A stretch of 64,000 bases of DNA from Escherichia coli (GTDB lineage Bacteria > Pseudomonadota > Gammaproteobacteria > Enterobacterales > Enterobacteriaceae): the NCBI RefSeq assembly GCF_003334815.1, contig NZ_QOWO01000011.1; one strand, given 5' to 3'. Below, one piece after another: positions 48,692 to 49,827 of this stretch (positions within the stretch are counted from its first letter, which is position 1; each line of letters opens with the position of its first letter). Position numbers and translations under genes: made by a program. The notes under the pieces are model-generated. The model made no database searches and had not been told where the DNA came from. It worked only from the letters and a program-made list of their open reading frames with translations.

Positions 48692-49827
48692 ATGAAGACG
48701 TTTCCTCTGCAAAGCCTGACGATTATTGAGGCGCAGCAAAAGCAGTTTGCGCTGGTGGATAGCATTTGTCGCCATTTCCCCGGCAGCGAGTTTCTTACTG
48801 GCGGTGATTTAGGCTTAACGCCAGGACTGAATCAACCGCGCGTTACCCAGCGTGTGGAACAGGTGCTGGCTGATGCATTTCACGCACAGGCTGCGGCGCT
48901 GGTGCAGGGCGCGGGGACTGGCGCGATTCGCGCCGGGCTGGCGGCTTTGCTCAAACCGGGGCAGCGTCTTCTGGTGCATGACGCGCCTGTTTACCCGACG
49001 ACACGGGTTATTATTGAGCAGATGGGGCTGACGCGCCTGTTTACCCGACGACACGGGTTATTATTGAGCAGATGGGGCTGACGCTTATTACTGTTGATTT
49101 CAATGACCTGTCGGCACTGAAGCAGGTCGTCGACGAGCAACAACCGGATGCGGCGCTGGTGCAGCATACGCGCCAGCAGCCGCAGGACAGCTACGTGCTG
49201 GCAGATGTGCTGGCAACGTTGCGCGCGGCAGGTGTTCCAGCGTTAACCGATGACAACTATGCGGTGATGAAGGTGGCTCGAATCGGCTGTGAATGCGGCG
49301 CGAATGTCTCGACATTTTCCTGCTTCAAGCTATTTGGGCCAGAGGGTGTTGGTGCAGTGGTCGGCGATGCTGATGTTATCAACCGTATTCGCGCCACGCT
49401 TTACTCCGGCGGTAGCCAGATCCAGGGCGCACAGGCGCTGGAAGTATTGCGTGGTCTGGTGTTTGCGCCAGTGATGCACGCGGTGCAGGCAGGGGTATCT
49501 GAACGGTTGCTGGCTTTGCTTAACGGTGGTGCGGTGCCGGAAGTGAAAAGCGCGGTGATTGCTAATGCGCAGTCGAAGGTGTTGATTGTCGAGTTTCATC
49601 AGCCGATTGCCGCCAGAGTGCTGGAAGAGGCGCAAAAGCGCGGTGCCTTGCCTTACCCGGTGGGTGCAGAGTCGAAATATGAAATCCCGCCGCTCTTTTA
49701 TCGCCTTTCCGGAACGTTTCGCCAGGCGAATCCACAATCAGAACATTGTGCGATTCGCATTAACCCGAATCGCAGCGGTGAAGAGACGGTGCTGCGGATT
49801 TTGCGTGAGAGTATTGCCAGTATTTAA
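48692..49827 (+). pseudogene. yhfS: yhfS (recalled as PLP-dependent enzyme) disrupted by a 50-bp tandem duplication
   Basis: Track shows two ORFs, 48692..49081 (129 aa, ends TRLFTRRHGLLLSRWG*) and 49072..49827 (251 aa from MGLTLITVDF). Deleting one copy of the 50-mer fuses them into one 361-codon frame. Confidence 0.85.
48981..49080. repeat. Perfect 2 x 50-bp direct tandem repeat inside yhfS
   Basis: acgcgcctgtttacccgacgacacgggttattattgagcagatggggctg at 48981-49030 and identically at 49031-49080; tgacgc microhomology at both junctions. Confidence 0.97.

Follow-up and report, generated by a model that had tools for sequence, protein, structure and literature searches.

A perfect 50-bp tandem duplication with TGACGC microhomology splits yhfS in one Escherichia coli assembly

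The yhfS gene lies at 48692-49827 of the stretch of Escherichia coli DNA analysed here (the window, 64,000 nucleotides), and its reading frame is broken by a 50-bp segment that occurs twice in succession. The locus raises the question of what kind of lesion this is and what, if anything, it does for the bacterium. The original prediction named three options, namely a reversible on/off lesion, a strain-specific loss of function, and an artefact of assembly or editing. These options differ in what they lead one to expect of the duplicated DNA itself, of its distribution among other genomes, and of the assembly that carries it, and each of these is considered below.

The duplication was predicted to be perfect, and it is. 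The 50-mer ACGCGCCTGTTTACCCGACGACACGGGTTATTATTGAGCAGATGGGGCTG occupies positions 48981-49030 and again 49031-49080, contiguously and with zero mismatches, and identity at period 50 stretches across 106 nt. The predicted TGACGC microhomology is likewise present, with the hexamer found at all three boundaries (48979-48984, 49029-49034 and 49079-49084) at a spacing of 50 bp. Tandem Repeats Finder reports one array at the site (48979-49084, period 50, 2.1 copies, 100% matches, score 212); of the other entries among the 17 for the 64-kb window, the best scores 53, and all have periods of 12 or less. The junction between the copies contains neither filler nor foreign sequence, and the junction 34-mer GAGCAGATGGGGCTGACGCGCCTGTTTACCCGAC occurs once in the window, with 0 occurrences expected from 100 shuffles. 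The parts of the duplication are as follows.

48979..48984, + strand: left microhomology arm TGACGC, already in the single-copy ancestor (single-copy sequence in loci L012 and L013)
48981..49030, + strand: duplication copy 1, in the register of the original prediction (registers 48979 to 48985 are equivalent)
49031..49080, + strand: duplication copy 2, 100% identical to copy 1
49029..49034, + strand: novel junction, the central TGACGC followed by GCCTG and not by TTATT
49079..49084, + strand: right microhomology arm TGACGC, whose TGA (49079-49081) ends the shifted frame prematurely

The effect of the duplication on the reading frame follows from its length. An insertion of 50 bp amounts to -1 modulo 3, and so the frame shifts after codon 114 and stops 15 residues further on: codon 114 (Thr) is unaltered, and it is followed by 15 novel residues and the TGA at 49079-49081, which lies inside the third TGACGC. 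The ATG of a second open reading frame (ORF) overlaps this premature stop (ATGGGGCTGA), and the gene thus falls into the parts listed here.

48692..49827, + strand: yhfS pseudogene, whole gene, 1,136 nt against 1,086 nt, collinear with yhfS of strain 26561
48692..49081, + strand: N-terminal ORF of 129 aa, made up of YhfS residues 1-114 and a tail of 15 frameshift residues (RLFTRRHGLLLSRWG)
49072..49827, + strand: C-terminal ORF of 251 aa, YhfS residues 111-361, with Lys196 and the YhfS-like_C domain

These coordinates (ATG 48692, stop 49079-49081, and restart at ATG 49072 running to 49827) agree with those of the original prediction and with the ORF list, and its count of 16 out-of-frame codons is right when the stop is included. 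The length of the whole gene is not divisible by 3 and the gene has internal stops; the single polypeptide expected of YhfS is split between the 129-aa and 251-aa ORFs, making the gene a yhfS pseudogene. When one copy is deleted in silico, the single 361-codon ORF that had been predicted is restored. Its product is 100% identical, over the full length, to PDB 4J8L_A 'Uncharacterized protein YhfS' (E = 2e-235), and is found verbatim in the protein collection as YHFS_ECOLI, on at least 1,000 contigs.

The restored protein matches two Pfam families, PF00155 (Aminotran_1_2) at residues 52-232 (E = 9.5e-10) and PF22475 (YhfS-like_C) at residues 255-354 (E = 1.4e-43). Its GAGTGA segment (residues 73-78) aligns with the Gly-rich loop of methionine gamma-lyase and O-succinylhomoserine sulfhydrylase, and the lysine of its SCFKL segment, K196, aligns with the SxxK lysine of the same two enzymes, in which that lysine forms the Schiff base to PLP. 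Judged by these matches and alignments, the restored YhfS is a fold-type I PLP-dependent enzyme with a YhfS-like C-terminal domain. The frameshift after residue 114 falls within the PLP-binding domain and parts the Gly-rich loop from K196. This separation of the two halves of the cofactor site argues for a loss of YhfS function, and domain topology indicates that the enzyme of the duplicated allele would most probably be inactive. On the phenotype or function of yhfS or the yhf operon, the literature gave essentially nothing relevant.

The consequences of the lesion are expected to be confined to yhfS itself. The gene closes a run of genes on one strand, yhfZ-yhfY-yhfX-yhfW-php-yhfU-yhfT-yhfS, beyond which lies the convergent frlR. 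Because yhfS ends its run and a convergent gene comes next, no polar effect is expected, and downstream genes should be unaffected. The spacer between yhfS and frlR contains a GC-rich imperfect palindrome at 49867-49905 (CCCCTCGCCCCTTTGGGGAGAGGGTTAGGGTGAGGGG), which we take to resemble the boxC-type intergenic repeats of E. coli. In frlR, the mechanically called ORF (49979-50776, - strand) has a GTG start and 265 aa, and the RefSeq gene has 243 aa (49979-50710). Both lengths are among the gene calls of other assemblies, and the difference is a start-codon ambiguity only.

The original prediction had also called for a comparison of the site with other E. coli genomes. The comparison set consisted of 5,426 complete E. 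coli genomes, JGI metagenome contigs, GTDB representative genomes and about 15 billion proteins. A 40-mer centred on the junction, for which single-copy DNA cannot seed a 28-nt megablast word, had 0 matches in the 5,426 complete genomes; a control 40-mer from 50 nt upstream had matches in 3,900 of them. An exact scan with the junction 34-mer likewise found 0 occurrences in the JGI metagenome contigs and 0 in the GTDB representative genomes. When a 300-nt query around the site was used, all 40 of the listed complete-genome matches covered 250 nt, that is, one copy, in two pieces. In the complete genomes among the matches listed, yhfS is a single full-length CDS, and no reference was found with two copies and yhfS annotated as split. 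Derivatives of K-12 also have a single copy at the yhfS site.

The 129-aa frameshift product is likewise confined to a single source, since among the roughly 15 billion proteins it corresponds to CAM9201593.1, on 1 contig. With the junction absent from the genome and metagenome collections searched and its protein product on one contig, the option of a strain-specific loss of function is favoured. The duplication is a strain-private, recent pseudogene allele. A naturally split gene or a programmed frameshift was also considered and rejected, because the split site is not conserved in the complete genomes among the matches listed.

The C-terminal fragment has a wider distribution. Gene calls of the 251-aa ORF occur on many other contigs, and ten such loci were examined. 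Five of the ten have single-G deletions (at yhfS nt 216, 222, 267 and 289), one has a nonsense change (C214T), and one is on a noisy contig with several 1-bp indels. The other three have N-run scaffold gaps in yhfS (L003:1405-1413, L005:1336-1435 and L007:1336-1435), and a share of the fragment ORFs called in public data is thus technical in origin. Homopolymer sequencing errors may account for some of the G deletions. Like the duplicated allele, these loci give the same 251-aa ORF call, and their -1 frameshifts end at the same TGA; unlike it, none is a duplication and none has the junction. The same ORF recurs because all -1 shifts hit one out-of-frame TGA that overlaps Met111.

The G deletions and the C214T nonsense change (loci L002, L004, L006, L008, L009 and L010, with yhfS at about 1172-2256 in each) are independent lesions. 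The other broken alleles show that yhfS is dispensable in nature. Whether they also mark yhfS as a hotspot for disruption is another matter: any upstream lesion yields the same 251-aa ORF, and the sample is biased for that reason. With part of this biased sample being technical, and with the intact protein on at least 1,000 contigs, the idea of a hotspot is not convincing.

Some further variation was seen in and around the gene. The 5' third of yhfS (48692-49000) is unusually polymorphic across E. coli: identity to the 300-nt query is 90-95% in 1,243 genomes and 80-90% in another 589. Loci L002 and L004 have dense SNP clusters in yhfS codons 11-56, and such clusters suggest that 5' alleles of yhfS may be mosaic or recombinant. 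One metagenome scaffold (L005:2363-3756) has yhfS followed directly by a yhfL-like DUF4223 gene and cysG, and is without the whole frlABCDR fructoselysine operon (49979-54852 in the window).

How might the duplication have arisen? The ancestral, single-copy yhfS contains TGACGC twice, exactly 50 bp apart, and in strain 26561 the one copy is indeed flanked by the two TGACGC hexamers. During replication, a nascent strand whose 3' end had just finished the downstream TGACGC could have slipped back to pair with the upstream TGACGC of the template, and the intervening 50 bases would then have been copied a second time. Such a step would leave two perfect copies, head to tail, and add no filler. In the duplicated gene the frame shifts after codon 114 and runs into the TGA of the third TGACGC, cutting the PLP domain. 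As with any perfect tandem duplication, precise loss of one copy could restore yhfS.

We infer the slippage step from the scar. By our own calculation, a duplication with random endpoints would have microhomology of 6 bp or more with a probability of 4^-6, or about 2.4e-4. A contribution from local DNA secondary structure promoting slippage was considered and rejected, because folding energies were no better than those of shuffled sequences. Single-stranded folding of the unit gave no unusual structure (z-scores of 0.39, -0.42 and -0.06 against shuffles), the only hairpin within the 50-nt unit has 5 bp (ACCCG/CGGGT), and no notable inverted repeats flank the unit. Overall, it is very probable that a microhomology-mediated slippage duplication created a strain-private knock-out of yhfS, with probable loss of function and no sign of a role as a switch.

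Duplications between short direct repeats are familiar from classical work on slipped misalignment in E. coli, and are equivalent to what are now called microhomology-mediated tandem duplications (MTDs). The yhfS lesion has the structural features of this class. A segment found once in relatives is here present in exactly two copies, head to tail; a microhomology arm lies at both ends (at least 1 bp in the class, typically 4-8 bp), with the arms spaced by the unit length; and the junction has no filler. A duplicated unique segment, the lack of filler, and an ancestral 6-bp GC-rich repeat one unit apart together argue for a microhomology-mediated tandem duplication.

A published case is the ssp1 gene of fission yeast (S. 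pombe), which is frameshifted by tandem duplications 55, 68 or 92 bp long, with arms of 5-8 bp, that also revert (PMC8639346). Reversion of the ssp1 duplications occurs at about 1e-4 and formation at about 8e-7 (PMC8639346). In the E. coli genome such duplications are detected about 1/20 as often (PMC8639346), and a survey of public E. coli assemblies reports about 13,000 loci at which tandem duplications vary among strains, roughly half having arms of more than 3 bp (bioRxiv 10.64898/2026.02.28.708716, 2026 preprint).

The yhfS duplication resembles the published MTDs in taking a short unique segment from one copy to two (50 bp here, 55-92 bp in the published cases) and in having a GC-rich arm at each end (the 6-bp TGACGC here, 5-8 bp in the published cases). 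It also shares with them a junction without filler, a gene-inactivating frameshift, and presence in one strain but absence from relatives. There is no structural difference; reversion and phenotype are experimental findings of the published cases. By its structure, the yhfS duplication is one more instance of this well-known and routine class.

The foremost competing explanation is that the second copy is an artefact. One form of artefact, an editing of the window, was among the options in the original prediction but can be excluded. A 6,390-bp locus on a draft contig of 111,120 bp (CBDBYT010000010.1, assembly GCA_965212685.1) is found verbatim in the window from 45692, duplication included. 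The window equals a public contig over these 6,390 bp, and therefore the duplication was not inserted afterwards; an artificial edit of the window is rejected on the same ground, the duplication being present in a deposited public assembly.

The other form is an artefact of assembly or sequencing, in which the isolate has one copy and the second came from the assembler, from polishing or from a library chimera. This part of the option is unlikely, and we would assign it only a small probability. It draws some support from the fact that the two-copy state is known from one deposited draft assembly (a 111-kb contig), and from the technical origin of three of the ten other broken yhfS loci (the N-gap scaffolds L003, L005 and L007). 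However, the complete, collinear and near-identical genome of strain 26561 (NZ_CP027118.1) differs from the window over 64 kb by 14 SNPs and one indel, the 50-bp duplication itself, and the window contains no Ns. The duplication had been described as the only disruption of a coding frame in the window, and this stands: the other complete CDSs annotated in strain 26561 all have open frames of the correct length in the window (55 of 55), with yhfS alone disrupted. The integrity of these 55 CDSs argues against a noisy assembly. The scar itself also speaks against an artefact, since 6 bp of microhomology, improbable by chance as calculated above, is a signature of slippage and is far below assembly k-mer size. 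In addition, the usual error of assemblers with short tandem repeats is to collapse them and not to add copies.

A second explanation accepts the duplication and gives it a purpose, namely that it is a selected, reversible on/off lesion that silences yhfS in some niche and is undone by precise excision, as in ssp1 of S. pombe. The reversible option of the original prediction survives as far as the mechanism is concerned, since all of the coding information is kept intact, and perfect tandem duplications are lost far more frequently than they arise (about 1e-4 versus 8e-7 in S. pombe, PMC8639346). The comparison with other genomes speaks against it, as none of those searched shows variation in copy number here. 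The junction is found nowhere else in the collections searched, so that there is no recurrent copy-number variation at the site; the literature gave no yhfS phenotype; and a single neutral or mildly deleterious event in a dispensable gene explains the data. The probability of a selected reversible lesion is accordingly very low, and no switching or selection is evident in the complete genomes, the metagenome contigs or the GTDB representatives.

The locus also differs from the phase-variable contingency loci, the simple-sequence-repeat switches with which it might be compared. As in those loci, a change in repeat number shifts the frame and is reversible in principle. Contingency loci, however, have many units of 1-7 nt that vary in number among and within strains, whereas yhfS has two copies of a 50-nt unit, in one assembly. 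Repeat number does not vary recurrently among the 5,426 complete genomes, the metagenomes and the GTDB representatives, and the repeat is a 50-nt unit in two copies rather than an array of many 1-7-nt units. With no recurrent variation and a unit that is long rather than simple-sequence, the duplication is not a phase-variable contingency locus.

A bolder version of the same idea would be that a fast-reverting MTD was selected in the isolate as a 'temporary' knock-out, loss of YhfS or of the output of the whole yhfZ-yhfS pathway being advantageous in some host or niche and one-copy revertants persisting as a subpopulation. We regard this as a slim prospect. If true, it would be a natural bacterial case of the fission-yeast strategy of reversible mutation, and the uncharacterised yhf operon would gain its first phenotype handle.

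Finally, the two ORFs might together make a functional split enzyme, with both the 129-aa and the 251-aa fragments produced, the latter by re-initiation at the overlapping ATG, and reassembled into active YhfS. No YhfS residue is missing from the two ORFs taken together, residues 111-114 being encoded by both, and the overlap of stop and restart codons is of a kind that can permit translational coupling. Even so, this explanation is scarcely credible: the cut is inside the PLP-binding domain (Pfam 52-232) and between the Gly-rich loop and K196, only a GAG at 3-nt spacing precedes ATG 49072 and makes a poor Shine-Dalgarno sequence, the N-terminal fragment ends in 15 junk residues, and a comparable split of yhfS is seen in no related genome, either among the listed matches or in the junction search of the 5,426 genomes. 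From the positions of these parts, a functional split YhfS is very unlikely.

The yhfS allele is thus best regarded as an MTD that knocked out the gene in one strain. As an ordinary strain-specific knock-out of a dispensable and uncharacterised gene, it matters little, and it would gain interest only with a phenotype of the isolate or a mixed population of one-copy and two-copy cells. Its value lies in part in annotation, because GCA_965212685.1 has CAM9201593.1 and the 251-aa fragment as separate CDSs, and these are better treated as a single yhfS pseudogene. Beyond that, the locus provides a clean worked example of an MTD scar.
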